Origin: Thermoanaerobaculia bacterium | GTDB lineage: Bacteria; Acidobacteriota; Thermoanaerobaculia; Gp7-AA8 | Assembly (NCBI GenBank): GCA_036399015.1 | Contig: DASWNW010000086.1 | Location: forward strand, 722-64,721 | Direction of reading: 5' to 3' | DNA: 64,000 nucleotides | Translations under genes and position numbers: made by a program | Notes under the pieces: model-generated | The model's database searches: none | Seen by the model: only the letters and a program-made list of their open reading frames with translations | Told to the model about the DNA's origin: nothing | Shown: in pieces, positions 3,017 through 64,000 of the stretch | How positions within the stretch are numbered: position 1 is the stretch's first letter | Layout of the letters: the number at the start of each line of letters is the position of its first letter

Positions 3017-3619
3017 GTGCGCCGCTATCTCCTTGCCTTGATCCTCCTCGCCAGTTGCGCCCCCGCGCCCGCTCCGGTTGGACCGCCGGTCGCGCCCGCG
3101 CCGCCACTGCCGTCCGCCGCGGCGCCGGCGGCGGAGGAGGCGGTCACCGGGACCGTCTACGTCACCGCCTCCGCGCTCAACGTGCGGGCGGAGCCGTCGA
3201 CGCAGGCGGGCATCGTGGCGACGGCGAAGCGGGGGGCGGCGCTGGCGGTGCTGGCGAACGGGAACGGGTGGCTGAAGGTGCGGCTCGCGAACGGCCGCGA
3301 GGGGTGGGTGGCGGAGCGCTTCGTCGGGACGCAGGCGGAGACGAAAAAGTCGGTGAAGCGCGACTGCGAGTCGGATTACTCGTTCATCCAGACCCCGACG
3401 CTCTCCTTCACCGAGCAGGACGCCCACGGGCTGGTGGTGGTCGAGGCGACGGTGAACGCGAAGGGCGTGGTGACGTCGACGAAGGTCATCTCGAACAACA
3501 CCGGGGACAGGAACGCCGGCGCGGTCGCGGAGCGGGAGATCCGCTCCGCGAGGTTCTCACCGCCGATGAGGAACTGCCAGCCGCGGTCGTTCATCTTCAC
3601 GTACCGGCGAACGTTTTAG
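3017..3619 (+). CDS. lipoprotein with bacterial SH3 (SH3b) domain and C-terminal TonB_C-like domain
   Basis: Signal/lipobox LILLASCAP; Pro/Ala-rich linker; SH3b-like VYVTASALNVRAEPS..GWLKVRLANGREGWV; C-terminal segment resembles TonB C-terminal fold. Confidence 0.5.
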   Translation: MRRYLLALILLASCAPAPAPVGPPVAPAPPLPSAAAPAAEEAVTGTVYVTASALNVRAEPSTQAGIVATAKRGAALAVLANGNGWLKVRLANGREGWVAERFVGTQAETKKSVKRDCESDYSFIQTPTLSFTEQDAHGLVVVEATVNAKGVVTSTKVISNNTGDRNAGAVAEREIRSARFSPPMRNCQPRSFIFTYRRTF

Positions 3620-7218: not shown

Positions 7219-7350
7219 GGTTGCTGGTTGCTGGTTGCTCGTGTCGGTTGTCAGTTGCTCGTTGTCAGTTGTCGGTTGTCGGTTGTCCGTGGAGTGTCGC
7301 CCGGGCGGGAACCCACGTCGACAACTGACAACCGACAACCGACAACACAA
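7219..7350. repeat. composite tandem-unit hairpin: 3x GTTGCTG units then long GTTGTCG/CGACAAC palindrome (stem ~27 bp)
   Basis: ggttgctggttgctggttgctc..gttgtcagttgtcggttgtcggttgtcc-loop-gacaactgacaaccgacaaccgacaac between fpg 3' end and ECF sigma start. Confidence 0.75.
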
Positions 7351-38550: not shown

Positions 38551-39828
38551 ATGCGCATGCTCCTCAAGATCGGACTCGCCGTCGCTGCTGTTGCTGTGGT
38601 TGCTGCCGTGGTCATGGCGCAGCCGGCGCCGGCGAAGAACGATGCAGCGGCGCCGCGGTCCGAGGACAAGCGGTTCGAGGTGCAGATCACGGACGAGATG
38701 GTCCGGCACAGCCGGATCCGCGACACGCTGTACTTCGTCAACATCGCCTGGTCCCTCGTCGTCATGCTCGGGCTGTTGTTCAGCGGGGCGTCGCGGAAGA
38801 TGCGCGACCTGGCGGCCCGCTGGGTGAAGCGGCCGTACTGGCAGGCGGCCATCTACATCGTCCTCTTCATCCTCGCCACCACCATCATCGACTTCCCGCT
38901 GTCGTACTACTCCGGCTTCGTCGTGCCGCATCAGTTCGACCTCACCGAGCAGTCCTTCGGCTCCTGGATGGGAGACCTGGCCAAGGGGCTCGCGGTCGGG
39001 CTCGCGATCATGCCGCTCCTCGGCGCGTGGGCGCTGCTCGGCATCCGCAAGGTGAAGAACTGGTGGGCGGTCCTCTGGGCGGTCTCCATCCCGCTCATCG
39101 TCCTGCTGGTGGTCATCCAGCCGATCGTCCTCGACCCGATCTTCAACAAGTTCGAGCCGCTGCAGGACCAGGTGCTCCGGCAGAAGCTCCTCGACCTCGC
39201 CTCGCGCGCCGGCATCGAGGGCGGCCGGATCTACCAGGTCAACAAATCGAAGCAGACGAAGACGATGAACGCGTACGTGAACGGCATCGGCCCGACGAAC
39301 CGCATCGTCATGTGGGACACGCTGCTCGCGAAGATGACGCACGACGAAGTCCTGGCCGTGATGGGCCACGAGATGGGCCACTACGTCATGAGGCACATCT
39401 GGAAAGGGCTCGCGTTCTCGCTGGCCGTCTCGTTCGTCGTCTTCTTCCTCGTGCAGCGCATCCACGATCCGGGGCTGCGCAAGTGGGGGCCGCGCTGGGG
39501 CTTCACCACGCCGGGCGATCCGGCGTCGGTGCCCTGGCTGCTCCTCATCGCGGGAGTCGTGTCGCTCTTCCTCTCGCCGGTGACGAGCGGCTACTCCCGC
39601 TCGATGGAGCACAAGTCCGACATGTTCGCGCTCGAGGTCACGCACCTCAACGAGCCGCTGGCGACCGCGTTCCGCAAGATGGCCGAGGACTCCAAGCGCG
39701 ATCCGAGCCCCCACCCGTTCATCGAGTTCTGGCTCTACTCGCACCCGCCTATCGCGAAGCGCATCCCCTTCGCCCTCTCGTACAAACCGTGGGAGAAGGG
39801 GGAGCCTAATCGGATGTGGCAGCCATGA
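38551..39828 (+). CDS. M48 family (Ste24/HtpX-like CAAX-protease type) membrane metallopeptidase
   Basis: 425 aa; multiple TM; HEMGHYVM HExxH zinc motif and downstream E. Confidence 0.8.
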   Translation: MRMLLKIGLAVAAVAVVAAVVMAQPAPAKNDAAAPRSEDKRFEVQITDEMVRHSRIRDTLYFVNIAWSLVVMLGLLFSGASRKMRDLAARWVKRPYWQAAIYIVLFILATTIIDFPLSYYSGFVVPHQFDLTEQSFGSWMGDLAKGLAVGLAIMPLLGAWALLGIRKVKNWWAVLWAVSIPLIVLLVVIQPIVLDPIFNKFEPLQDQVLRQKLLDLASRAGIEGGRIYQVNKSKQTKTMNAYVNGIGPTNRIVMWDTLLAKMTHDEVLAVMGHEMGHYVMRHIWKGLAFSLAVSFVVFFLVQRIHDPGLRKWGPRWGFTTPGDPASVPWLLLIAGVVSLFLSPVTSGYSRSMEHKSDMFALEVTHLNEPLATAFRKMAEDSKRDPSPHPFIEFWLYSHPPIAKRIPFALSYKPWEKGEPNRMWQP

Positions 39829-40462
39829 CGGCGGCGACGACCCGGTCGCAGCGGCTGTTGCCGAACGCGAACAGCGTCTCCAGGGTCACACCCGCGCGCC
39901 GGTAAAGCCGGTCGCGCAGCAACGTGCGGGCGCGGGAGAGCCGCGTCTTCACCAGGTCCTCGGAGATGCCGAGGCATTCGGCGGTCTCGGAAGTGCTGAG
40001 CCCCTCGACGTCGCGCAGCATGAGCACGGCGCGGAACGTGTCGGGCAGCGCCGCGACCTGCCGCTGCATGACGTCGCGCAGCTCGGACGCGAACGTCTCC
40101 TGCTCCGGATCGGGAGCATTCGATTCGACGAGCTGGATCATCGCGTCGTCCCCTCCTGCGAATGGCTGTCTCTTCCCGCGGCGCGCAATGGCCTCGTTCA
40201 CCGCGATGCGCGTCAGCCAGGTCGAGAACTGCGCGCGCCCGGCGTACTGCCGGAGACTGCGGTAGGCATTGAGATACGCCTGCTGCATGACGTCCTCGAC
40301 CTCTTCCTCGTTGCCGAGGACGGCGCGGACGGCGCGGTAGATGCGCTGGTTGTACCGGCGCATGACGATCTCGAAGAGAGCGTGGTCGCCGGCGGTGATG
40401 CGCTCGACCAGCTCCTCGTCTGTCAAGTGGTCGCGGATCGCTGCGATCGGAACGGTGGTCAT
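39806..40462 (-). CDS. ECF-type sigma-70 family sigma factor
   Basis: Start at second Met (40462) with AGGAGA RBS; regions 2 and 4 (LSTSETAECLGISEDLVKTRLSRAR). Confidence 0.75.
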   Translation of the reverse strand: MTTVPIAAIRDHLTDEELVERITAGDHALFEIVMRRYNQRIYRAVRAVLGNEEEVEDVMQQAYLNAYRSLRQYAGRAQFSTWLTRIAVNEAIARRGKRQPFAGGDDAMIQLVESNAPDPEQETFASELRDVMQRQVAALPDTFRAVLMLRDVEGLSTSETAECLGISEDLVKTRLSRARTLLRDRLYRRAGVTLETLFAFGNSRCDRVVAAVMAATSD

Positions 40463-40560
40463 CGAGAGTCTCCTGTCCATTAGAGCAGCGTCCCGGGAAA
40501 AGGTGACAGTGTCACCCGTTGCACGCTTGGCCGCTCCAATCGGGCAGGAGGAAACAAACA

Positions 40561-40971
40561 ATGGACTCACGACTCAACTCCGTCTTCTGGTCTCTCCGCC
40601 TCGCGTTCGGCCTGACCGCGTTCCTGGCCGGCCTCGACAAGTTCCTGAACCTGCTCACCAACTGGGAGCAGTACGCGAGCCCGCTCGTGCTGCGCATGGT
40701 GCCGCTGAGTGCCGGCTCGCTCATGCGCGTCGCCGGCGTGATCGAGATGCTCGTCGGCATCGCCGTGCTGGCCGGCCTCACGCGCCTCGGAGGTTACGTC
40801 GTCGCGGCCTGGCTCACGCTCATCGCGGTCAGCCTCGTGACGACCGGACAGTACTTCGACGTCGCGGTGCGCGACCTGGTGATGGCCGTCGGCGCGTTCG
40901 CGCTGGCGCGGCTGTCCGAGGTGCGGGAGCCGGCGGCAGTGCGCACGCCGTTGCAGGCGCGGACCGCCTGA
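40561..40971 (+). CDS. DoxX family membrane protein
   Basis: Start Met15 with AGGAGG RBS; 136 aa, 4 TM DoxX-like. Confidence 0.65.
   Translation: MDSRLNSVFWSLRLAFGLTAFLAGLDKFLNLLTNWEQYASPLVLRMVPLSAGSLMRVAGVIEMLVGIAVLAGLTRLGGYVVAAWLTLIAVSLVTTGQYFDVAVRDLVMAVGAFALARLSEVREPAAVRTPLQARTA

Positions 40972-45268: not shown

Positions 45269-45272
<4 letters not shown>
44238..45272 (+). CDS. secreted protein with two pseudopilin (T2SS GspG)-like repeats and C-terminal TonB_C domain
   Basis: ATG overlaps tkt stop (ATGA); signal peptide; twice [20 protein letters not shown]; C-terminal ..[55 protein letters not shown]. Confidence 0.5.
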
Positions 45273-47932
<2,660 letters not shown>

Positions 47933-47972
47933 TCGGGTCGGTGCGGCGCGATGGTAGCAAACCGGCCGTTCT

Positions 47973-48542
47973 TTACTCGACCGGAATCCCCGTGACCGCC
48001 ACCTGGTATCCCTGCAGCGTGGTGGTCTGTCCGTACATCGCCGCCGGCGTGTAGTCGGTGCGGTGGTTGACGTACGAGTAGTACTTCGTGCCGAGGAACT
48101 TCGTGCCGTTCGTGCTGTGGATGCCGTCGATCGTCGAGACGATCCATTCCGGCTCACCGCGCTCCGCGTGCGGCGGGCGCTCGAAGACCAGCCAGTACTC
48201 GCCGGCGGGGAGGTCGAGCCCGTCGAAGAGGATCCAGGAGCCGTCGAACGACGGCGGCAGCTCGTACGACGTCTGCGCCACCTCCGCGCTCTTGCTGGTC
48301 GACGGGCCGATGCGCCGCATGAGGTACGTCGTCACGATCGAGTAGTCGTCGTAGCCGCTGTCGGCGCGGACGGAGATCGTGACGTTGCGGTGGGGGAGGG
48401 CGAACGCCCAGCCGATCGCCAGGGCGTCGGCCTTGCTGCCACGGGTGTCCCCGCCGCGGGCGGCGAAGAGGAGGGGACAGTGTTCCCCGGCGGACAGCGA
48501 CAGTGGAAGGCAGAGGAGCGCGGCCAGCACTGCGGACTTCAT
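47973..48542 (-). CDS. hypothetical secreted protein
   Basis: Start at Met25 giving signal peptide MKSAVLAALLCLPLSLSAGE. Confidence 0.4.
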   Translation of the reverse strand: MKSAVLAALLCLPLSLSAGEHCPLLFAARGGDTRGSKADALAIGWAFALPHRNVTISVRADSGYDDYSIVTTYLMRRIGPSTSKSAEVAQTSYELPPSFDGSWILFDGLDLPAGEYWLVFERPPHAERGEPEWIVSTIDGIHSTNGTKFLGTKYYSYVNHRTDYTPAAMYGQTTTLQGYQVAVTGIPVE

Positions 48543-56123: not shown

Positions 56124-56492
56124 CTAGGCCGCGCACTCCCGGACGCTCGCCAGCAGCGCGTCGACGTCGAACGGCTTGCGCATCACCGCGTGCACCTGCG
56201 ACACGTCGAAGCCGTTCAGCGTGGCCTGCGACGCGGCGGTCAGGACGATCACCCGCGGCGACATGGCCGGCCGCTCCGCGTTCAGGAAACGGATGACGTC
56301 GAAGCCGAACTGGCCCGGCAGCATCAGGTCGAGCAGGATGGCGTCGTATCCGTTCGTGCGCAGCATCCGCACCGCGTCGTTGCCGTCGCCGCAGACTTCG
56401 GGCGAGTAGCCGTCGCGCGACAACAGGGTCACCAGGAACGAGCGGATGGCGGCGTCGTCTTCGACGATGAGTACCTTTTTCTCCGGGGACAT
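56124..56492 (-). CDS. single-domain response regulator (REC)
   Basis: 122 aa CheY-like; D-D..D(55)..T..K signature (VLIVEDD, ILLDLMLPG). Confidence 0.8.
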   Translation of the reverse strand: MSPEKKVLIVEDDAAIRSFLVTLLSRDGYSPEVCGDGNDAVRMLRTNGYDAILLDLMLPGQFGFDVIRFLNAERPAMSPRVIVLTAASQATLNGFDVSQVHAVMRKPFDVDALLASVRECAA

Positions 56493-56549: not shown

Positions 56550-58244
56550 TCAGGCCGGTTTGCCCCAGAAATAACCCTGGCCGTACTCGATCCCCAGCGA
56601 CCGCACAACCTCCAGCTCGCCAGCCGTCTCGATCCCCTCGGCGACGATGGCGCAGCCGAGCGTCCGCGCCACCCCGACGTACCGCCGCAACTGCTCGATC
56701 CGGGCACGGTCGCCGACGATCCCGATCACACACCGCTTGTCGATCTTGATGATCTCCGGCTGCAGCAGGATCAGGCTCTCCAGGCAACTGCTGCCGAAGC
56801 CGACGTCGTCGATGGCGATCATCACCCCCGCCGCCCGCAGCGCCTGCACCGCCGGCAGCAGGTACGACGGGTCGCCGATGATCTGCTGCTCGCTGATCTC
56901 CAGGCAGAACGTCTCCGCCGGCAGCGGCTTCGGGAAGAGGTCGAGCAGATGCTCCACCGGCACCGCCAGCAGCGTGGTCGGGAAGATGTTCAGGTGGAAG
57001 CGGGCATACGGCGGCAGTTGCATGGCCGCGCTCATCGCCGAGCGGAGGCAGGCGTGGTCGACGAGCGTGAGGATGTTCTTCTCCGAGCAGACGCGGAAGA
57101 AGTTCTCCGGCAGCTCCAGGCCGCCGTTCGAGTAGCGGCTCAGGAACTCGTATCCGATCGGGCTCTCGCCGGCGAGCTCGAAGATCGGCTGCTTCACCGT
57201 GAGGATGTGCCGTCCGCGCGAGAGATTGCCGCACATGTCCGTCTGCGCGCGCATGCGGCGGTCGGTGTCGTCGAAATCGGCGGCGGCCGACACGACCCGG
57301 TTCTTCCCCTCGCTCTTCGCCCGCGCCAGGAGCATGTGCGCGCGCGCCAGCAACTGATCGACCGCCGGCATGTCCTCGGTGAGCAGCATCGCGGCAATCG
57401 AGGCGGTGAGCGTCACCGTCCCGGTGCTGTGCTGGATCATCGCCGTGGCGATCGCCAGGCGGATCCGCTCGGCGACGCGCATCACCTCGGCCGGCTCGGT
57501 CTCCGGCAGCAGGAGCATGAACTCGTCGCCGCCGATGCGTCCGACGTAGTCGACCGCGCGGATCGACGCGCGCAGCCGCCGCCCCACTTCCTTCAGCACG
57601 ACGTCGCCCGCCGCGTGGCCGAGGTGGTCGTTGATGTGCTTGAAGTCGTCGAGGTCGACGAGCAGCACCGCGCTCGACGCCGCCGCGCGGTTCATGTGCT
57701 GCACCTCGCGCGAGAGCGCCTGCTGCAGTCCGCGCCGGTTGAGCAGCTCCGTCAGCGGCTCGACCAGCGTGAGCCGCTCGAGGTCGCGGTTGACGTTCTC
57801 CAGCTCCTTCTTCACCCGCGCCAGGTCGCGCACGCCGCGGTGCCGCTCGACGGCATAGCGGATCGAGCGGATGAGCGAGTCGAAGTCGATCGCCCCCTTG
57901 CGCAGGTAATCCTCCGCGCCGAAATGCAGCGCGTCGCTCGCGAGCGTGTCGTCGCCGCGGCCGGTGAGCACGATGACCGGGATCTCGTGCACCGCCGCCT
58001 CGAGCCGGATCAGCGCCTGCAGGTCGGTCGCGTCGGGCAGGCCGAGGTCGAGGATCACGACGTCGAGATCGCCGCCGCGCACCGCCTCGCAGGCGGCGGC
58101 CGCGCTGGTGACGTGCCGGATCGTGAACTGCGGATCGCCCGACACCTCGAGCAACGCGCGCAGGGAACGGGCCGAGCTGAGGTCGTCCTCGACGATCAGC
58201 AGCCGAAGGACGTGCGCCGCGGTAGCTGAATGAGAGACTGCCAT
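56550..58244 (-). CDS. response regulator with REC, GGDEF and EAL domains
   Basis: 564 aa from ATG 58244; GGDEF motif RIGGDEF; EAL-domain motifs (EFLSR, DDVGFG, EGIE..GQGYFW). Confidence 0.85.
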   Translation of the reverse strand: MAVSHSATAAHVLRLLIVEDDLSSARSLRALLEVSGDPQFTIRHVTSAAAACEAVRGGDLDVVILDLGLPDATDLQALIRLEAAVHEIPVIVLTGRGDDTLASDALHFGAEDYLRKGAIDFDSLIRSIRYAVERHRGVRDLARVKKELENVNRDLERLTLVEPLTELLNRRGLQQALSREVQHMNRAAASSAVLLVDLDDFKHINDHLGHAAGDVVLKEVGRRLRASIRAVDYVGRIGGDEFMLLLPETEPAEVMRVAERIRLAIATAMIQHSTGTVTLTASIAAMLLTEDMPAVDQLLARAHMLLARAKSEGKNRVVSAAADFDDTDRRMRAQTDMCGNLSRGRHILTVKQPIFELAGESPIGYEFLSRYSNGGLELPENFFRVCSEKNILTLVDHACLRSAMSAAMQLPPYARFHLNIFPTTLLAVPVEHLLDLFPKPLPAETFCLEISEQQIIGDPSYLLPAVQALRAAGVMIAIDDVGFGSSCLESLILLQPEIIKIDKRCVIGIVGDRARIEQLRRYVGVARTLGCAIVAEGIETAGELEVVRSLGIEYGQGYFWGKPA

Positions 58245-58288
58245 ACAGTACGGATACAGCCGCGCCGGGCGGGCGAACGTGACGGCGG

Positions 58289-58927
58289 TCACGCCGGACG
58301 CAGCGCGAGGCTCTCGCGCCGGCGCAGTACCTCCCATCCGAGGAGCGCGAAGCTCAGCCCGAGCGCCACGTCGCAGGCCCCCAGCGCCCACTCCAGCCGC
58401 ACCGCCCGCCCGACCGGGAACAGCACGCCGCCGGCCACCAGCAGCGCACCGATCGCGCGGTGTACCGGGGCGGTGGCGACCAGCGCCGCGCCGAGCACGA
58501 TCAGCCCGAGCGGGAACATCAGCCCCATCGGCACGATGCTCAGCCAGACGACCGGCGCGGCGGTGAACATCTTGTCCAGCGTGTCGGCCGGCACGCCGGT
58601 GACGCCGCTCTGCAGCAGCGACTCCAGTTGCCCCAGGACGATGATCCGGCAGCCGACGGTCCAGCCGGCGATGGTCAGCGCGCCTCCGATCAGCCCCGTA
58701 CGATCGGCGCGCGCGCGCAGCAACTCCGCGATTCCGAACACGACGCCAACCAGCAGCACCATCGTGAACGGCACCACGAACCCGCTCGCTGCGATCCTCG
58801 CGGGAGACGCCGGCCCGCCGCGCGCGATCAGATGCGTGAGCGGATTCGAGAGAAACAGCAACGCCAGCGCCGCGAAACAGAAGCCGGAGAGGATGCGCCG
58901 GCGGGTCACGTCGTTCGATTCGGTCAT
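58289..58927 (-). CDS. hypothetical membrane protein
   Basis: Start Met17 with GGAGGAAG RBS; 5-6 TM helices. Confidence 0.45.
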   Translation of the reverse strand: MTESNDVTRRRILSGFCFAALALLFLSNPLTHLIARGGPASPARIAASGFVVPFTMVLLVGVVFGIAELLRARADRTGLIGGALTIAGWTVGCRIIVLGQLESLLQSGVTGVPADTLDKMFTAAPVVWLSIVPMGLMFPLGLIVLGAALVATAPVHRAIGALLVAGGVLFPVGRAVRLEWALGACDVALGLSFALLGWEVLRRRESLALRPA

Positions 58928-58981
58928 GAGCTTCCTCCAACTGACGTAGCGACGTGGGCGAGGGAAAGTGTTCACTCTGAT

Positions 58982-59070
58982 GTTGTCGGTTGTCGGTTCT
59001 CAGTTGTCCGGGGCTCCTCGTCACCCCAACACCGCAGACAACCGACAACCGACAACCGACAACCGACAAC
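58982..59070. repeat. GTTGTCG / CGACAAC tandem-unit hairpin repeat in divergent promoter region; followed by direct repeat cgcaggccgcgcc x2
   Basis: gttgtcggttgtcggttctcagttgtcc-loop-gacaaccgacaaccgacaaccgacaaccgacaacc. Confidence 0.75.
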
Positions 59071-59121
59071 CGCGGCCGCAGGCCGCGCCCGCAGGCCGCG
59101 CCGCCTGCTACCATCTTCCCG

Positions 59122-59688
59122 ATGCCCGACATCACGCGGCTTCTCGCCGGCTGGCGCGCCGGTGACCGCTCCGCCTTCGAGCAGCTCACGCCGCTCGTGT
59201 ACGCCGAGCTGCGGCACATCGCCGCGCGTCAGCTCGGGCGCGAGGAGGCGGGCCACACGCTGCAGCCGACCGCATTGGTCAACGAGGCCTTCATCCGCCT
59301 CTGCGGCAGCACGCCGGCCGCCTGGCAGGACCGGTCGCACTTTTTCGCCGTCTGCGCGCAGGTGATGCGGCACATCCTCACCGATCACGCCCGGGCGCGG
59401 CTGCGCGTGAAGCGGGGGGCGGGGGCGGTGCACGTCCCGCTCGACGCGGCGGCCACGGTGATCCAGCAGGAGCCGTCGCTCGACCACGCCGCGCTCGACG
59501 ACGCGCTGCGCGCGCTCGAGACGCTCGATCCCCGCAAGGGGCGCATCGTCGAGCTCCGCTACTTCGCCGGCCTCGGCATCGAGGAGACGGCGGAGCTGCT
59601 GAACGTCTCCGCGATGACGGTGCGCCGGGAGTGGACGCGCGCGAAGGCCTGGCTCTATCGCGAGCTGGCCGAGGGAGGCAGCCGTTAA
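59122..59688 (+). CDS. ECF sigma factor of the Ser/Thr-kinase-associated type (TIGR02999-like)
   Basis: Start Met45 of ORF 58990..59688; ..ITRLLAGWRAGDRSAFEQL.., region 4 HTH; followed by cognate kinase gene. Confidence 0.8.
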   Translation: MPDITRLLAGWRAGDRSAFEQLTPLVYAELRHIAARQLGREEAGHTLQPTALVNEAFIRLCGSTPAAWQDRSHFFAVCAQVMRHILTDHARARLRVKRGAGAVHVPLDAAATVIQQEPSLDHAALDDALRALETLDPRKGRIVELRYFAGLGIEETAELLNVSAMTVRREWTRAKAWLYRELAEGGSR

Positions 59689-59797
59689 GACCGAGCGCTG
59701 GCGGCGGATCGACGGGCTCTTCGCGTCCGCCCTGGAGCTGGAGGGGAGCGCGCTGCAGCGTTTCCTCACCGAGGAATGCGGCGAGGACCGCGCCGAG

Positions 59798-62482
59798 GTG
59801 GAGTCGATGCTGCGCTTCGCCCGCGCGTCGAGCGATTTCCTCGAGACGCCGGCGCTCAGCGACCGCACCACCCTCGCCGTCTTCGACGACGAGCCGACGC
59901 GGCAGCAGCCGGCGACCGATCCGCGCCGCATCGACGACACCCGCTTCATCCCCGGCGACGTCGTCGCCGGCCGCTACCGCATCGTCGGCCTCCTCGGCCG
60001 CGGCGGGATGGGGGAGGTCTACCGCGCCGACGACCTCAAGCTCGCGCAGCCGGTCGCGCTGAAGTTCCTCGCGGAGTCGCTGTCGTCGAACGGCGCCGCG
60101 CTGGCGCGCTTCCACCGCGAGGTCAGCCTCTCGCGCCAGATCTCCCACCGCCACGTCTGCCGCGTCTACGACATCGGCGAGCACGCCGGGATGCACTTCC
60201 TGTCGATGGAGTACGTGCGCGGCGAGGAGCTGTCGTCGCTGCTCAAGCGCATCGGCCGCCTCCCGCTCGACAAGGCGCTCGAGACGGCGCGGCAGTTGTG
60301 CGCCGGCCTCGCCGCCATCCACGCCGCCGGCGTGCTTCATCGCGATCTGAAGCCGGCCAACGTGATGATCGACGAGCACGGCGACGTGCGCATCACCGAC
60401 TTCGGCATCGCCGCGCTCGCCGAGGGGGTGAGCGGGCGGGAGGCGATGATCGGCACGCCGGTGTACATGTCGCCCGAACAACTCTCGGGCGGCGAGCTCT
60501 CCGTGCGCAGCGACATCTACGCCCTCGGGCTGGTGCTGTACGAGACCTTCACCGGCAAGCGGCCGTTCGCCGCGACGACGCTGCCCGACATCATCCGCGA
60601 CCGCCTCGGCGAGACCACGCCCACCAGCCCCTCCGACTGGATCGCCGACCTCGATCCGCTCGCCGAGCGGGTGATCCTGCGCTGCCTCGAGAAGGATCCC
60701 GACCGCCGCCCCGCCTCGGCGCTGCACGTCGCGGCCGCGCTTCCGGGAGGCGATCCGCTCGCGGCCGCACTGGCGGCGGGGGAGACACCGTCGCCGCAGA
60801 TGGTCGCCGCGGCGCAGAAGGAGGGTGGGCTGCGGCCGCTCGCCGCGGTGCTGCTGCTGGCCTCCATCTTCCTCATCTTCGTAGCCGGCGCGCTCGTCTC
60901 GCACCGGTCGTCGCTGCACCACTACCTCGGGCTGGAGCTGTCGCGCGAGCTGCTGCAGGCGCGGGCGGTCGACATCATCCGCGAGGCCGGCTACACCGCG
61001 CCGCCCGCCGACCGCGCCTCCGGGTTCATGGCCGACAACGAGCTGTTCATCCGCCTCCGCGACGGCCAGCAGACCGAGTCGTGGGAGCGTTTTCGCGCGG
61101 CGCCGCTGCCGCTCCTTCCGTACTGGTACCGGCAGAGCCCGCGCCCACTCGTGCCGTACGACGTCTGGGAGGTCAGGGACTTCAACCCGCCCAATGACAG
61201 CGCCGGAATGGTGCGCCTCCGTCTCGACCTGAAGGGCCGCCTGCTCTTCTTCGAGGCCGTACCGCCGCAGGATGACGCCGCACCGCGCGGAGCGAGGCCC
61301 GCGCCGTGGGCCCGTTTCTTCGAGCGCGCCGGCCTGACGATGACCGCGTTCCGGCCGGCGGACCCGCGGTGGACGCCGCCGCACCACAGCGATCGGCGGC
61401 TGGCCTGGACCGGCGTCCATCCGACCCGGCCGGAACTGCCACTGCGCGTCGAGGCGGCGTCGTACCGGGGAGTGCCGGTGTGGTTTCAGGTGATCTTCCC
61501 CTGGCAGGAGGCGGACGGCGCGCTGGCGGAGGCCTCGCTGGACATGAGCCGGCCGTTCCTGATGGCGCTGATCTGCTTCTACTTCGCCGCGATAGCGCTC
61601 GCGGCGCTGCTGGCGTGGAAGAACGTCCGCCTCGGACGAGGCGACCGGCGCGGGACATGGCGCCTCATGGCCTTCGTCTTCGTCTCCCGCCTCATCTACT
61701 GGCTGTTCATGTTCCACCACGTCGCCGCTCTCGGGGAGATCGACGCGTTCGTGACCGCGTTGCAGTCGGCGCTCTACTGGTCGGGGGTGATCGGATTGCT
61801 CTACATGGCGCTGGAGCCGTTCATTCGCCGCCGGTGGCCGGAGCGGCTGATCTCCTGGAGCCGTCTACTCCGCGGCGATCTGCGCGACCCGCTCGTGGGC
61901 CGCGACGTGCTGATCGGCGGCGCGCTCGGCGTGACCGCGGACCTCTCCTCCAACCATCTCTCCGCCCTCGTCCCGCAACTCTTCGGCTGGACGATTCGCA
62001 TGCCGATCCCCCATTCCGATCTGCTCTACCGGCACGGCCTCGACGGCGCGCGCGGCTTCGTCGCGCTGGTGATGAACCAGACCGCCGCGGCGATCATGTT
62101 TCCGCTGATCATGCTGTCGATCGTGCTCTTCTTCGCGATGCTCACCCGCCGGAACGCGCTCGGCTTCGCGGTGACGTGGCTGCTCGTCTACCTCGTGCTC
62201 AACCTCAACTCCATCGACCCGTCGCCGGTGCGCTACGTCATGGGTCTGATCTTCCCCACACTCATCTTCTTCACCCTGTACCGGTTCGGACTCCTCGCGC
62301 TGATGTCGCTGGTCTTCTTCAACCACGTCTCGGTGTTCTACCCGGTCACCACCGACCTCGGCGCCTGGTACGCCACGTCGTACCTGCTGCACCTCGCGCT
62401 GCTCACGGCGATCGCGCTGTACGCGTTCCGCGTCTCGCTGGCGGGGCAGAAGCTGATGCAGCGCTCGCTGTTCGATGACTGA
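59798..62482 (+). CDS. ECF-sigma-associated Ser/Thr protein kinase with large C-terminal polytopic membrane domain; real N-terminus probably begins ~59690 (no canonical start)
   Basis: Kinase subdomains GRGGMGEVY..ALK, HRDLKPANV, DFG, MSPEQ; ~10 predicted TM helices after residue ~350; conserved ERWRRIDGLF..ALEL motif lies upstream of first GTG. Confidence 0.8.
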   Translation: MESMLRFARASSDFLETPALSDRTTLAVFDDEPTRQQPATDPRRIDDTRFIPGDVVAGRYRIVGLLGRGGMGEVYRADDLKLAQPVALKFLAESLSSNGAALARFHREVSLSRQISHRHVCRVYDIGEHAGMHFLSMEYVRGEELSSLLKRIGRLPLDKALETARQLCAGLAAIHAAGVLHRDLKPANVMIDEHGDVRITDFGIAALAEGVSGREAMIGTPVYMSPEQLSGGELSVRSDIYALGLVLYETFTGKRPFAATTLPDIIRDRLGETTPTSPSDWIADLDPLAERVILRCLEKDPDRRPASALHVAAALPGGDPLAAALAAGETPSPQMVAAAQKEGGLRPLAAVLLLASIFLIFVAGALVSHRSSLHHYLGLELSRELLQARAVDIIREAGYTAPPADRASGFMADNELFIRLRDGQQTESWERFRAAPLPLLPYWYRQSPRPLVPYDVWEVRDFNPPNDSAGMVRLRLDLKGRLLFFEAVPPQDDAAPRGARPAPWARFFERAGLTMTAFRPADPRWTPPHHSDRRLAWTGVHPTRPELPLRVEAASYRGVPVWFQVIFPWQEADGALAEASLDMSRPFLMALICFYFAAIALAALLAWKNVRLGRGDRRGTWRLMAFVFVSRLIYWLFMFHHVAALGEIDAFVTALQSALYWSGVIGLLYMALEPFIRRRWPERLISWSRLLRGDLRDPLVGRDVLIGGALGVTADLSSNHLSALVPQLFGWTIRMPIPHSDLLYRHGLDGARGFVALVMNQTAAAIMFPLIMLSIVLFFAMLTRRNALGFAVTWLLVYLVLNLNSIDPSPVRYVMGLIFPTLIFFTLYRFGLLALMSLVFFNHVSVFYPVTTDLGAWYATSYLLHLALLTAIALYAFRVSLAGQKLMQRSLFDD

Positions 62483-63485
62483 CCGCCTGCACAGCCACCT
62501 CCTCGCCGGAAACGGTCTCGCCACGCCGCACGACGTCGTCGCCCACTTCGGCGCCATGCAGGCGCAGGACTACCTCGGCGCGCTCTGGGCCGTCGGCGTG
62601 CGCATGAAGGGCGACGCGACGGAAGGGGAGATCGAGCGGGCGATCGCGGAGCGGAGGATCGTCCGCTGCTGGCCGATGCGCGGCACGCTGCACTTCGTCG
62701 CCGCGGAAGACGTGCGCTGGATGCTCGAGTTGCTCGCGCCGCGCGTCCTGCGCCGCCACCGCACGCGCCTGGAGCGCGACTTCGGTCTCGACACCCGCAC
62801 GCTCCGCCGCTGCCGCACGGCCGCCGAGCGGACGCTCCGCGGCGGCAACGCATCGACGCGCCCGGAGCTGTACGCCGCGTTCGAGGCGGCGGGGATCGCC
62901 ACGAAGGGGGGCCGCGGCCTCCACATCCTCTTCGCGCTGGCGCACGAGCGCGTGCTCTGCTTCGGCGCCCGCCGCGGCAAACAGCCGGCGTTCGTCCTCC
63001 TCGACGAGTGGGTCGCGCCGTCGAAGCCGAAGCCGCGCGAGGAGGCGCTCGCGGAGCTGGCGACGCGCTACTTCCGCAGCCACGCCCCCGCCACCCCCGC
63101 CGACTTTGCCTGGTGGTCCGGCCTCCCGCTGAAGGAAGCCAAGGAGGCGATCGATCTCTCTGGACCGACGGCCTCTCAGGCCGTCGCAAAGGTGAAATCC
63201 CTCCACCTCCTCCCCCCCTTCGACGAATACACCGTCGCCTACAAAGACCGCACGGCGATTCTCGATCCAAGCTTCGCAAAACGCGTCAACGCCGGCGGCG
63301 GCATCCTCAACGCCGTCGTAATCATCGACGGCACCGTCACCGGCACCTGGAAACGCACCCTCCGCCGTGACACGGTGGACGTGACCCTCGCCCCCTTCCG
63401 GCCGCTTACGGCCCGCGAGACGCGCGCCGTCGACCGCGAGATCGCGCGCTACGCGGCCTTCCTCGGCAGTAGGATCGCGACGTGA
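62475..63485 (+). CDS. winged-helix (HTH_42/DUF1006) AlkZ/YcaQ-family putative DNA glycosylase, with in-frame palindromic-element insertion
   Basis: 336 aa; QAQ (Q-phi-Q) motif in AMQAQDYLGALWA; DUF1006-like length; residues ..LSGPTASQAVAKV.. are encoded by the palindromic element. Confidence 0.55.
   Translation: MTDRLHSHLLAGNGLATPHDVVAHFGAMQAQDYLGALWAVGVRMKGDATEGEIERAIAERRIVRCWPMRGTLHFVAAEDVRWMLELLAPRVLRRHRTRLERDFGLDTRTLRRCRTAAERTLRGGNASTRPELYAAFEAAGIATKGGRGLHILFALAHERVLCFGARRGKQPAFVLLDEWVAPSKPKPREEALAELATRYFRSHAPATPADFAWWSGLPLKEAKEAIDLSGPTASQAVAKVKSLHLLPPFDEYTVAYKDRTAILDPSFAKRVNAGGGILNAVVIIDGTVTGTWKRTLRRDTVDVTLAPFRPLTARETRAVDREIARYAAFLGSRIAT
63164..63187. repeat. small palindromic element inside AlkZ/YcaQ-like CDS
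   Basis: ctctctggaccgacggcctctcaggccgtcgc. Confidence 0.7.
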
Positions 63486-64000
63486 GCGGGCAAAAGAAGG
63501 TCGTGATCATTGCCGGCCCGAACGGCGCCGGGAAGACGACCTTCGCCCGCGAGTTTCTGCCGCGCGAGGCGGGCCTGCCGACGTTCGTCAACGCCGACCT
63601 GATTGCGGCCGGGCTGTCGCCCTTCGATCCCGGCGCTGCCGCGATTCGCGCAGGGCGGATGATGCTCGCGGAGATCGACCGTCACGCCGCCGAAGGACGG
63701 AGCTTCGCGTTCGAGACGACGTTGTCGGGGCATACGTATCTGCGGCGGATCGGCTCGTGGCGCGCCGCCGGTTACGTCGTGAAACTGATCTTCCTGTCGC
63801 TTCGCGCACCCGACGACGCCATCGCCCGCGTGGCGATGCGCGTGCGGCAGGGAGGCCACGATGTTGCACCCGATGTCGTGCGGAGGCGCTTCGCGAGCGG
63901 TATGCGAACTTTCTTGACGTCTATCGCCAGCGGGTGGACTTCTGGCAGTGGTACGACAACAGCGGCGAAGAGCCACAACTACTGGAGGAGGGGGCGAATG
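63482..64000 (+). CDS. zeta-toxin-like / AAA ATPase (P-loop kinase) family protein; 3' end continues beyond window; apparent frameshift near 63893
   Basis: GTG start overlapping upstream stop; Walker A GPNGAGKTT; conserved C-terminal ..RYANFLDVYRQRVDFWQWYDNSGEEPQLL is in a different frame from the N-terminal part. Confidence 0.5.
   Translation, partial: MSGQKKVVIIAGPNGAGKTTFAREFLPREAGLPTFVNADLIAAGLSPFDPGAAAIRAGRMMLAEIDRHAAEGRSFAFETTLSGHTYLRRIGSWRAAGYVVKLIFLSLRAPDDAIARVAMRVRQGGHDVAPDVVRRRFASGMRTFLTSIASGWTSGSGTTTAAKSHNYWRRGRM

Follow-up and report, generated by a model that had tools for sequence, protein, structure and literature searches.

The stretch of DNA analysed here, referred to as the window, is 64 kb long and comes from a genome of the Thermoanaerobaculia (Acidobacteriota). 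Its subject is a pair of adjoining genes, in surroundings of about 70% G+C, which encode an extracytoplasmic function (ECF) sigma factor and a receptor Ser/Thr kinase. As classified from sequence the pair is an ordinary unit of the ECF43 class, which is already known, and what is new here is the sensor module of the kinase, the correlation between its N-terminal module and the sigma gene, a conserved candidate target promoter and the likely non-ATG start of the kinase. The pair is made up of the following features, all on the plus strand.

59122 to 59688, plus strand: ECF43-type sigma factor of 188 amino acids (PF07638, Sigma70_ECF, E 4e-52, matched end to end; TIGR02999, 221 bits, cutoff 126 bits)
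59263 to 59274, plus strand: region 2.2 motif Q48-P49-T50-A51, replacing the acidic DAED (alignment of 12 orthologues)
59269 to 59271, plus strand: codon of T50, the predicted phospho-acceptor (from the ECF43 consensus and the phospho-sites of EcfK and EcfP)
59673 to 59678, plus strand: Shine-Dalgarno sequence GGGAGG of the kinase, lying within the sigma gene's 3' end, 5 nt before GTT 59684
59684 to 62482, plus strand: receptor Ser/Thr kinase, proposed coding sequence of 932 codons (GTT where relatives have ATG, ATT or ATC)
59687 to 59833, plus strand: N-terminal three-helix module, ERWxxIDxLFxxALE...FLxxxCxxD...EVExxL (AlphaFold2 (AF2) model; residues 1–49 counted from 59687)
59975 to 60715, plus strand: Hanks-type kinase domain (PF00069, E 9e-53; residues 60–306 of the open reading frame (ORF) that starts at 59798)
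60740 to 60796, plus strand: near-invariant juxtamembrane motif LPGGDPLAAALAAGETPSP (columns invariant or at least 90% conserved in alignments of 107 and 10 sequences)
60836 to 60910, plus strand: first transmembrane helix, TM1 (hydropathy peak 2.84; AF2 helix at residues 18–42 of the C-terminal model)
60911 to 61552, plus strand: predicted periplasmic alpha/beta domain of about 215 amino acids, no family match (non-hydrophobic; strands and helices in AF2, predicted local distance difference test score (pLDDT) mostly above 90)
61553 to 62440, plus strand: nine-helix membrane bundle, TM2 to TM10 (AF2 model)

The sigma factor and the kinase domain

The sigma factor is of the kinase-associated ECF type, as a preliminary description of this DNA had proposed, which follows from its matches to PF07638 and TIGR02999 together with QPTA in region 2.2; in the assignment to ECF43 the two family models stand as a proxy for the group hidden Markov models (HMMs) of the ECF classification (Casas-Pastor et al., 2021). 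Its orthologues from 11 loci are 61–89% identical, T50 is invariant in 12 of 12 sequences, and LQ[PA]TALVNEAF is common to all of them. In most ECF sigma factors an acidic DAED patch in region 2.2 contacts the beta' subunit, whereas ECF43 members have an uncharged patch with a conserved Thr, the phosphorylation of which by a kinase activates the sigma factor (PMC8999054; PMC8103513; PMC13147305). The phosphorylated Thr restores the charge needed for RNA polymerase binding, and both of the characterised ECF43 pairs have a kinase that acts positively on the sigma factor (PMC8999054; PMC13147305; PMC8103513). The ECF43 consensus is QTTA, and the phospho-sites are T51 of EcfK and the second Thr of STTA in EcfP (PMC13147305; PMC8999054). 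The pair had been described as a kinase-based anti-sigma system, a label that does not fit kinases which activate their sigma factors through the region 2.2 Thr (PMC8999054; PMC13147305; PMC8103513), and by analogy with these pairs the mechanistic frame is probably activation by phosphorylation, not anti-sigma control.

The Hanks-type kinase gene adjoins the sigma gene and overlaps its stop codon, and the same order is found in 11 related loci. Pfam scans found no anti-sigma gene beside the pair; the neighbours are a protein with six transmembrane (TM) segments and without a Pfam family on one side and an AlkZ-like gene on the other. Along the kinase the three-helix module is followed by a disordered linker, the kinase domain, the juxtamembrane motif, TM1, the alpha/beta domain and nine helices. 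The kinase domain is complete, as had been stated: the match covers positions 1–253 of the 263 in the PF00069 profile, and the P-loop, the Lys of VALK (VAxK), the alphaC Glu, HRDLKPxN, DFG and SPE are all present in the window and invariant or at least 90% conserved in an alignment of 107 sequences. The AF2 model of the full kinase, built from the same alignment, has a pLDDT of 88.7 and a predicted template modelling score (pTM) of 0.76. The best PDB sequence matches of the domain are StkP, PknA and PknB. The PASTA kinases PknB, StkP and PrkC, which give the best kinase-domain matches (E about 1e-44 to 1e-48; NF033483 is below its cutoff), are arranged like the window kinase, with an N-in kinase, then a TM helix, then a sensor on the outside. 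They differ from it in that the window kinase has no PASTA repeats, and in that they have neither the N-terminal extension (alignments begin at about residue 90) nor a dedicated sigma partner.

The N-terminal module and the start of the kinase gene

AF2 places the helices of the N-terminal module at residues 2–16, 21–30 and 32–49, with a pLDDT of 88–95 over the first 40 residues and of 74 over residues 41–50. No Pfam family, anti-sigma domains included, matched this module or the N-terminal 98 amino acids at E up to 10, and the hallmark of class I anti-sigma factors (ASD/zf-HC2, HxxxCxxC) is absent, the motif having only one conserved Cys. A profile made from 12 N-terminal sequences did match residues 8–56 of Xanthomonas citri PknS (PDB 9EED, E 1.3e-5), and this PDB profile search returned only PknS and no anti-sigma chains. 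With phmmer the alignment to PknS begins at query residue 4, whereas the other kinases listed begin only at about residues 86–97. The entry 9EED comprises PknS(1–364); PknS was shown to phosphorylate the ECF43 sigma factor EcfK (PMC13147305), and the authors note an 83-residue N-terminal segment of unknown role (PMC13147305). A protein search with the 57-amino-acid motif of the window alone gave no candidates; with the 12-sequence profile there were 1010 matches, of which those listed are short fragments that carry no architecture information.

The distribution of the module follows that of the sigma factor. In 82 related loci searched with HMMs of the sigma orthologues and of the N-terminal motif, the motif was found in 12, and an ECF43 sigma gene lies upstream in all 11 of these that could be assessed, the contig end of the twelfth (L017) being too near to show a sigma gene. 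The HMM searches found neither motif nor sigma gene in the remaining loci of the 82. Sixty-six genome loci had enough upstream sequence, and nine of them are sigma-linked. In most kinases that lack a sigma gene the N-terminus is a CxxC...CxxC zinc ribbon of about 25 amino acids, with a low-complexity linker after it (L006–L080, e.g., L006 3996–4233). When the tails are arranged by neighbour joining, each N-terminal type falls into large blocks, and at least four switches between the two types are needed. The zinc-ribbon members (P0063, P0065, and P0085; L006–L080) have the same kinase, juxtamembrane motif, periplasmic domain and 9-helix bundle, with a tail identity of 36–46%, but carry the ribbon in place of the three-helix motif and have no upstream sigma gene, so that their output would be a different one. 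The match to PknS and the sigma gene in 11 of 11 assessable loci establish that the N-terminal region, earlier called characteristic, is real. That it docks or recruits the sigma factor is a well-motivated proposal as to its role.

The same motif bears on where the kinase gene begins. It had been placed at 59798–62482, as in the mechanical ORF list, but 59798 is no more than the earliest start codon of a canonical kind: the open frame extends back to 59618, after a stop at 59615–59617, and reads AAVKTERWRRIDGLFASALELEGSALQRFLTEECGEDRAEVESMLRF, with no ATG, GTG, or TTG between 59618 and 59797 in the window. Upstream of 59798 the frame encodes KTERWRRIDGLFASALELEGSALQRFLTEECGEDRAEVE, and this part holds 14 of the 19 motif positions at which all 12 aligned sequences agree; the window retains all 19. 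The gene itself, with its intact kinase ORF, thus stands, whereas its start has to be moved, since the conserved motif begins upstream of 59798. The kinases of sigma-linked relatives begin MK[PS][DE]RW, and their ATG lies before the sigma stop codon or overlaps with it. The equivalent codon is GTT at 59684 in the window, ATT in L001 and L081, the closest loci with DNA, and ATC in L082, and GGAGG is kept 5 nt before it in the window, L001 and L081 and 6 nt before it in L082. The last base of the GTT is the first base of the sigma stop codon TAA (59686–59688), which gives GTTAA, a one-base overlap found likewise in L001 and L081; among relatives ATTAA, or ATG overlapping TGA, is seen at this junction. 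It is likely, judging from this alignment, that the kinase coding sequence starts at GTT 59684. An identical public protein (P0001, annotated as "serine/threonine-protein kinase" of a Thermoanaerobaculia metagenome-assembled genome (MAG)) begins at ATG 59807.

Many of the annotated relatives in the clade are cut inside the N-terminal motif and others have I or L at the start position, so that weak or non-ATG initiation of the kinase appears to recur in the clade, where the start position is M, I, L or V. This suggests that translation of the kinase relative to the sigma factor is deliberately weak, and coupled. As the kinase frame is the sigma frame +1, a fusion of the two proteins through a programmed +1 frameshift was considered, but it was rejected because there is no conserved slippery site, the codon concerned is ATG in relatives, and the distance from the Shine-Dalgarno sequence is right for initiation.

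The periplasmic and membrane tail

The part of the kinase that follows the catalytic domain had been described as one polytopic membrane domain of about 540 amino acids with about ten helices. The number of helices holds, as the tail modelled alone by AF2 (pLDDT 92.9, pTM 0.92) has ten long hydrophobic helices. The single block does not, since TM1 is separated from the nine-helix bundle by the soluble domain, which takes up about 40% of the length. While the pairing of an ECF sigma factor with a kinase is borne out by the family matches, the start of the kinase and the composition of its tail are thus the parts of the preliminary description that needed revision. The soluble domain is predicted to lie in the periplasm because the kinase is cytoplasmic, the number of TM helices is even and the inside loops are rich in Arg and positive; the resulting N-in, C-in topology of the ten-TM tail agrees with the positive-inside rule. 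The most conserved parts of the bundle are the cytoplasmic loops NxxxGRGDRRG and EPFxRRRWP...ISWSRLLxGDxRDPLVGRD, and the helix order in the model places a conserved His-His, a Glu, and a His on the outer face.

The tail belongs to no described sensor, transporter or enzyme family within Pfam, NCBIfam and the PDB. Neither Pfam (E up to 10) nor NCBIfam matched residues of about 340–894, NCBIfam returning kinase models only, and Pfam found no tetratricopeptide repeat (TPR) in the kinase or its tail. The best match in a PDB sequence-profile search was at E 0.37, and Foldseek of the tail model against the PDB gave no neighbour (best E 0.27, TM-scores of at most 0.15). No duplication was detectable with hhalign, either between TM2–5 and TM6–10 (2% probability) or between the halves of the periplasmic domain (1%). 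These results agree with the earlier placing of the membrane module outside the usual sensor families but lend nothing to the transporter-like input that had been suggested for it as an alternative to a putative lipid-sensing one, as both the Foldseek values and the missing repeat speak against this. The pair is thus a standard ECF43 pair, whereas its membrane domain is not a well-known sensor family. The cue that is sensed is favoured to be an envelope or periplasmic one, read by the periplasmic domain and the polar cluster on the outer face and relayed to the kinase by way of the invariant cytoplasmic loops.

The family of this tail is large. A word-indexed search gave more than 2500 clusters at 90% identity, and an exhaustive scan of 1.84 billion proteins gave, among representatives clustered at 50% identity, 6181 at E up to 1e-3 and 2112 at E up to 1e-30; the tail is found in at least 546 species-level genomes. 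The 80 loci that were kept are nearly all from Acidobacteriota (Thermoanaerobaculia, Pyrinomonadaceae/Blastocatellia, Terriglobia, Bryobacterales, and Acidoferrales). Two of the 80 carry the label of another phylum (L043, a Candidatus Saccharimonadales MAG, and L047, a Planctomycetota MAG), and these labels may reflect binning errors or rare transfers. The tail module is essentially always fused to a kinase. Matches of 580–710 amino acids were considered as non-kinase architectures and rejected as such: six of the ten scanned are N-terminally cut kinases, one is a full-length kinase, one is an apparent fusion call with NTP_transf_5 and three are without a Pfam match and are possibly fragments.

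The divergent promoter and the proposed pathway

Upstream of the sigma gene lie two promoter-like elements, one of which faces away from the pair.

58948 to 58975, minus strand: ECF-type promoter motif GTGAACACTTT-N10-CGTCGCT, which points to the gene of a 212-amino-acid protein and away from the sigma gene
58965 to 58975, minus strand: -35-like element of this motif
58948 to 58954, minus strand: -10-like element of this motif
58289 to 58927, minus strand: membrane protein of 212 amino acids with about six hydrophobic segments (from ORF and hydropathy; true start ATG 58927)
59106 to 59114, plus strand: extended -10-like element TGCTACCAT, 7 nt upstream of the sigma ATG

The 64-kb window has a single copy of the divergent motif, placed 20 nt before ATG 58927, and GGAGGA (58933–58938) falls in between. 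The strict pattern is found at the equivalent position in nine sigma-linked loci, in two classes, with GTGGACACTTT in Pyrinomonadaceae, a variant that a first, narrow pattern missed and that was recovered by k-mer comparison. Inspection added two loci with GTGGCCGCTTT or TTGGCCGCTTT and the same N10-CGTCGCT, which makes 11 of the 12 sigma-linked loci in all. The 212-amino-acid protein matched no Pfam family, and its homologues were found with tblastn in eight sigma-linked and in none of the sigma-less loci. What comes after the promoter in Pyrinomonadaceae is a DUF4440/SnoaL-like protein of 152–218 amino acids with a hydrophobic, signal-peptide-like start, which stands alone in L005 and L022 and before a six-TM protein in L002 and L016. 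We infer from this pattern that the promoter belongs to the adjoining sigma factor and that the 212-amino-acid gene is its probable local target.

Directly upstream of the sigma gene TAnnAT is found in 12 of 12 loci, and in eight of them as TG-N-TAnnAT, e.g., TGCTACAAT and TGATAGAAT. A two-hexamer scan gave no sigma-70 promoter, and the element TGCTACCAT was not detected by it. The conserved element suggests constitutive transcription of the sigma gene by the housekeeping sigma factor, with a leaderless or near-leaderless mRNA, and this would go well with a sigma factor that has no activity before its phosphorylation.

Taken together the pair and the divergent promoter would form an ECF43 signalling unit with a phospho-activated sigma factor and a membrane sensor kinase, a proposal that we hold to be probable as a whole. 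The sigma-kinase operon would be expressed from the housekeeping-type promoter, and the sigma factor, having QPTA instead of the acidic DAED in region 2.2, would by its nature fail to bind core RNA polymerase. The kinase would perceive an envelope or periplasmic cue through the periplasmic domain and the 9-helix bundle, to which we assign a putative sensing role, and autophosphorylate; holding the sigma factor by the three-helix module, it would then phosphorylate Thr50. This activation by phosphorylation is taken over from the characterised relatives, whereas the family memberships, the domain anatomy, the co-occurrence of motif and sigma gene and the conservation of the promoter are direct observations. 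The phosphorylated sigma factor would join RNA polymerase and fire the divergent GTGAACACTTT-N10-CGTCGCT promoter, which would drive the 212-amino-acid six-TM protein or, in Pyrinomonadaceae, a predicted secreted DUF4440/SnoaL-like protein with or without a six-TM protein.

The system that the proposed unit resembles most closely in its N-terminal part is EcfK/PknS, which likewise has an ECF43 sigma factor beside a transmembrane Hanks kinase, a conserved Thr in region 2.2 and a homologous extension before the kinase domain (profile E 1.3e-5). It differs in that PknS has a single TM helix, with TPRs in the periplasm, where the window kinase has TM1, the unclassified domain of about 215 amino acids and the 9-helix bundle, in that EcfK reads QATE, with one acidic residue kept, where the window sigma factor reads QPTA, and in that the target of PknS is a type VI secretion cluster while a small membrane protein is the predicted target here. 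EcfP/PknT of Vibrio parahaemolyticus (Iyer et al., 2020, as relayed by PMC8999054 and PMC8103513) shares the uncharged patch in place of DAED, STTA there and QPTA here. In those secondary accounts EcfP is intrinsically inactive and activated by phosphorylation of the Thr (PMC8999054; PMC8103513); by these accounts it also differs in the sensor portion of its kinase and in its regulon, which there is polymyxin resistance.

Several points weigh against the proposed pathway, which has been read from sequence, models and characterised relatives. Of the 66 assessable genome loci 57 have no sigma partner, and as most family members thus lack one, sigma control is not what the membrane module evolved for. 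The EcfK of Xanthomonas requires a second phospho-site in its linker (PMC13147305). The proposed first codon of the kinase, GTT, is no accepted start codon, so that poor translation, an internal start or a base-call error is possible, and the full-length kinase may be made poorly, or the protein may start at 59798 or 59807 and so lack helices 1 and 2. Position, conservation and the ECF-like GAAC...CGTC form are the only grounds for assigning the promoter to the sigma factor, and the AAC-to-CGT spacing of the promoter, 15 nt, is slightly under the usual.

Three other explanations can be set beside it. If the kinase were an anti-sigma factor, its three-helix module would sequester the sigma factor at the membrane until a signal releases it; a short helical N-terminal bundle that strictly co-occurs with a sigma gene is what would be expected of such a binding domain, and no separate anti-sigma gene was found at the locus. 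This is nevertheless quite improbable, since a Pfam search up to E 10 gave no anti-sigma domain and the PDB profile search only PknS, since a sigma factor without the acidic patch of region 2.2 should be inactive even when free, and since the kinase is needed for activation in the two ECF43 pairs that have been studied. It is also conceivable that the ten-TM and periplasmic module is no input sensor and is itself the effector, a transporter, flippase, or membrane enzyme under control of the kinase. This would be in line with the strongest conservation lying in the charged cytoplasmic loops of the bundle and in the polar residues (HH, E, H) of the outer face, and with the almost constant fusion of module and kinase regardless of which N-terminal output adaptor is present. 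We consider it unlikely, as there is no similarity to PDB transporters or enzymes (best E 0.27, TM-scores of at most 0.15), no internal repeat and no Pfam or NCBIfam match, and as the kinase of the sigma-linked members already has an output.

The remaining explanation concerns the window alone, where the pathway might be decaying or attenuated: a change from ATT to GTT would have removed the start and left a truncated kinase (from 59798 or 59807) that is uncoupled from the sigma factor, or the G might be an assembly error. GTT is indeed two positions away from ATG, sister genomes have ATT or ATC at this codon, and the public annotation begins at ATG 59807 (P0001). Yet all 19 invariant residues of the N-terminal motif are kept, comparison with L081 over the first 29 codons, which are ungapped, gives eight synonymous and eight non-synonymous codon differences, and GGGAGG is intact at ideal spacing. 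As weak or non-ATG starts (I, L, and V) recur at this position across the clade, low translation of the kinase looks like a trait and not like decay, which we regard as a very unlikely account of the locus.

Activation of a sigma factor by phosphorylation has been demonstrated mainly in EcfP/PknT and EcfK/PknS, and how the kinase recognises its sigma factor is left unexplained in the papers cited here (PMC8999054; PMC8103513; PMC13147305). The family described here amounts to a natural experiment, in which one sensor-kinase chassis is found both in loci that have a sigma partner and in loci that lack it, with an N-terminal module of about 50 residues as the only systematic difference. As this module tracks the sigma factor and is homologous to the unexplained extension of PknS, it is a concrete candidate for the docking element. 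It is tempting to speculate further that the three-helix motif is a portable sigma-recruitment domain, which gives ECF43 kinases their substrate specificity and has, on at least about four occasions in this family, traded places with a zinc-ribbon adaptor through which the same sensor serves a different output, and that the periplasmic domain and the 9-helix bundle together are a new membrane-embedded sensor fold, but in this combined form the idea is tentative and rather doubtful. The sensor module has a confident model with no structural or family neighbour and occurs in thousands of Acidobacteriota proteins; if the proposal is correct, the tail would define one of the largest unannotated families of receptor kinases in soil Acidobacteria. 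To our knowledge, signalling in Acidobacteriota is almost unstudied. The conserved target promoter offers a ready reporter for work on this sigma-kinase system.

Between the divergent promoter and the sigma gene lies a heptamer-repeat palindrome, (GGTTGTC)n ... (GACAACC)n, at 58982–59070. It was considered as a regulatory site and rejected, because a second copy is found in another intergenic region (7230–7346; 10 matches to an 18-mer where none were expected) and because unrelated palindromic repeats fill the same intergenic spot in L001 (about 3290–3380) and L081 (about 2210–2290); the spot looks like a hotspot for insertion of sequences resembling repetitive extragenic palindromes. No Rfam family was found in 58000–63600.

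Downstream of the kinase an AlkZ-like DNA glycosylase gene (62475–63485, plus strand; PF06224, E 3e-62) begins 8 nt before the kinase stop codon, and through this overlap co-transcription is possible in the window; the gene is not conserved downstream in L082. On the other side, just beyond the 212-amino-acid gene, a receiver-GGDEF-EAL protein is encoded at 56550 to about 58400 (minus strand), and as a GGDEF-EAL neighbour is found in L081 and not in L082, it is probably unrelated synteny. An ORF of 122 amino acids (56124–56492) lies downstream of it on the same, minus, strand. Elsewhere in the window there is a second Hanks-type kinase ORF (45272–48331, minus strand; phmmer E 3e-46 to the kinase domain), which lacks the N-terminal motif, and a distant sigma-like ORF at 39809–40573 (minus strand) matches the ECF43 HMM with E 4e-5.

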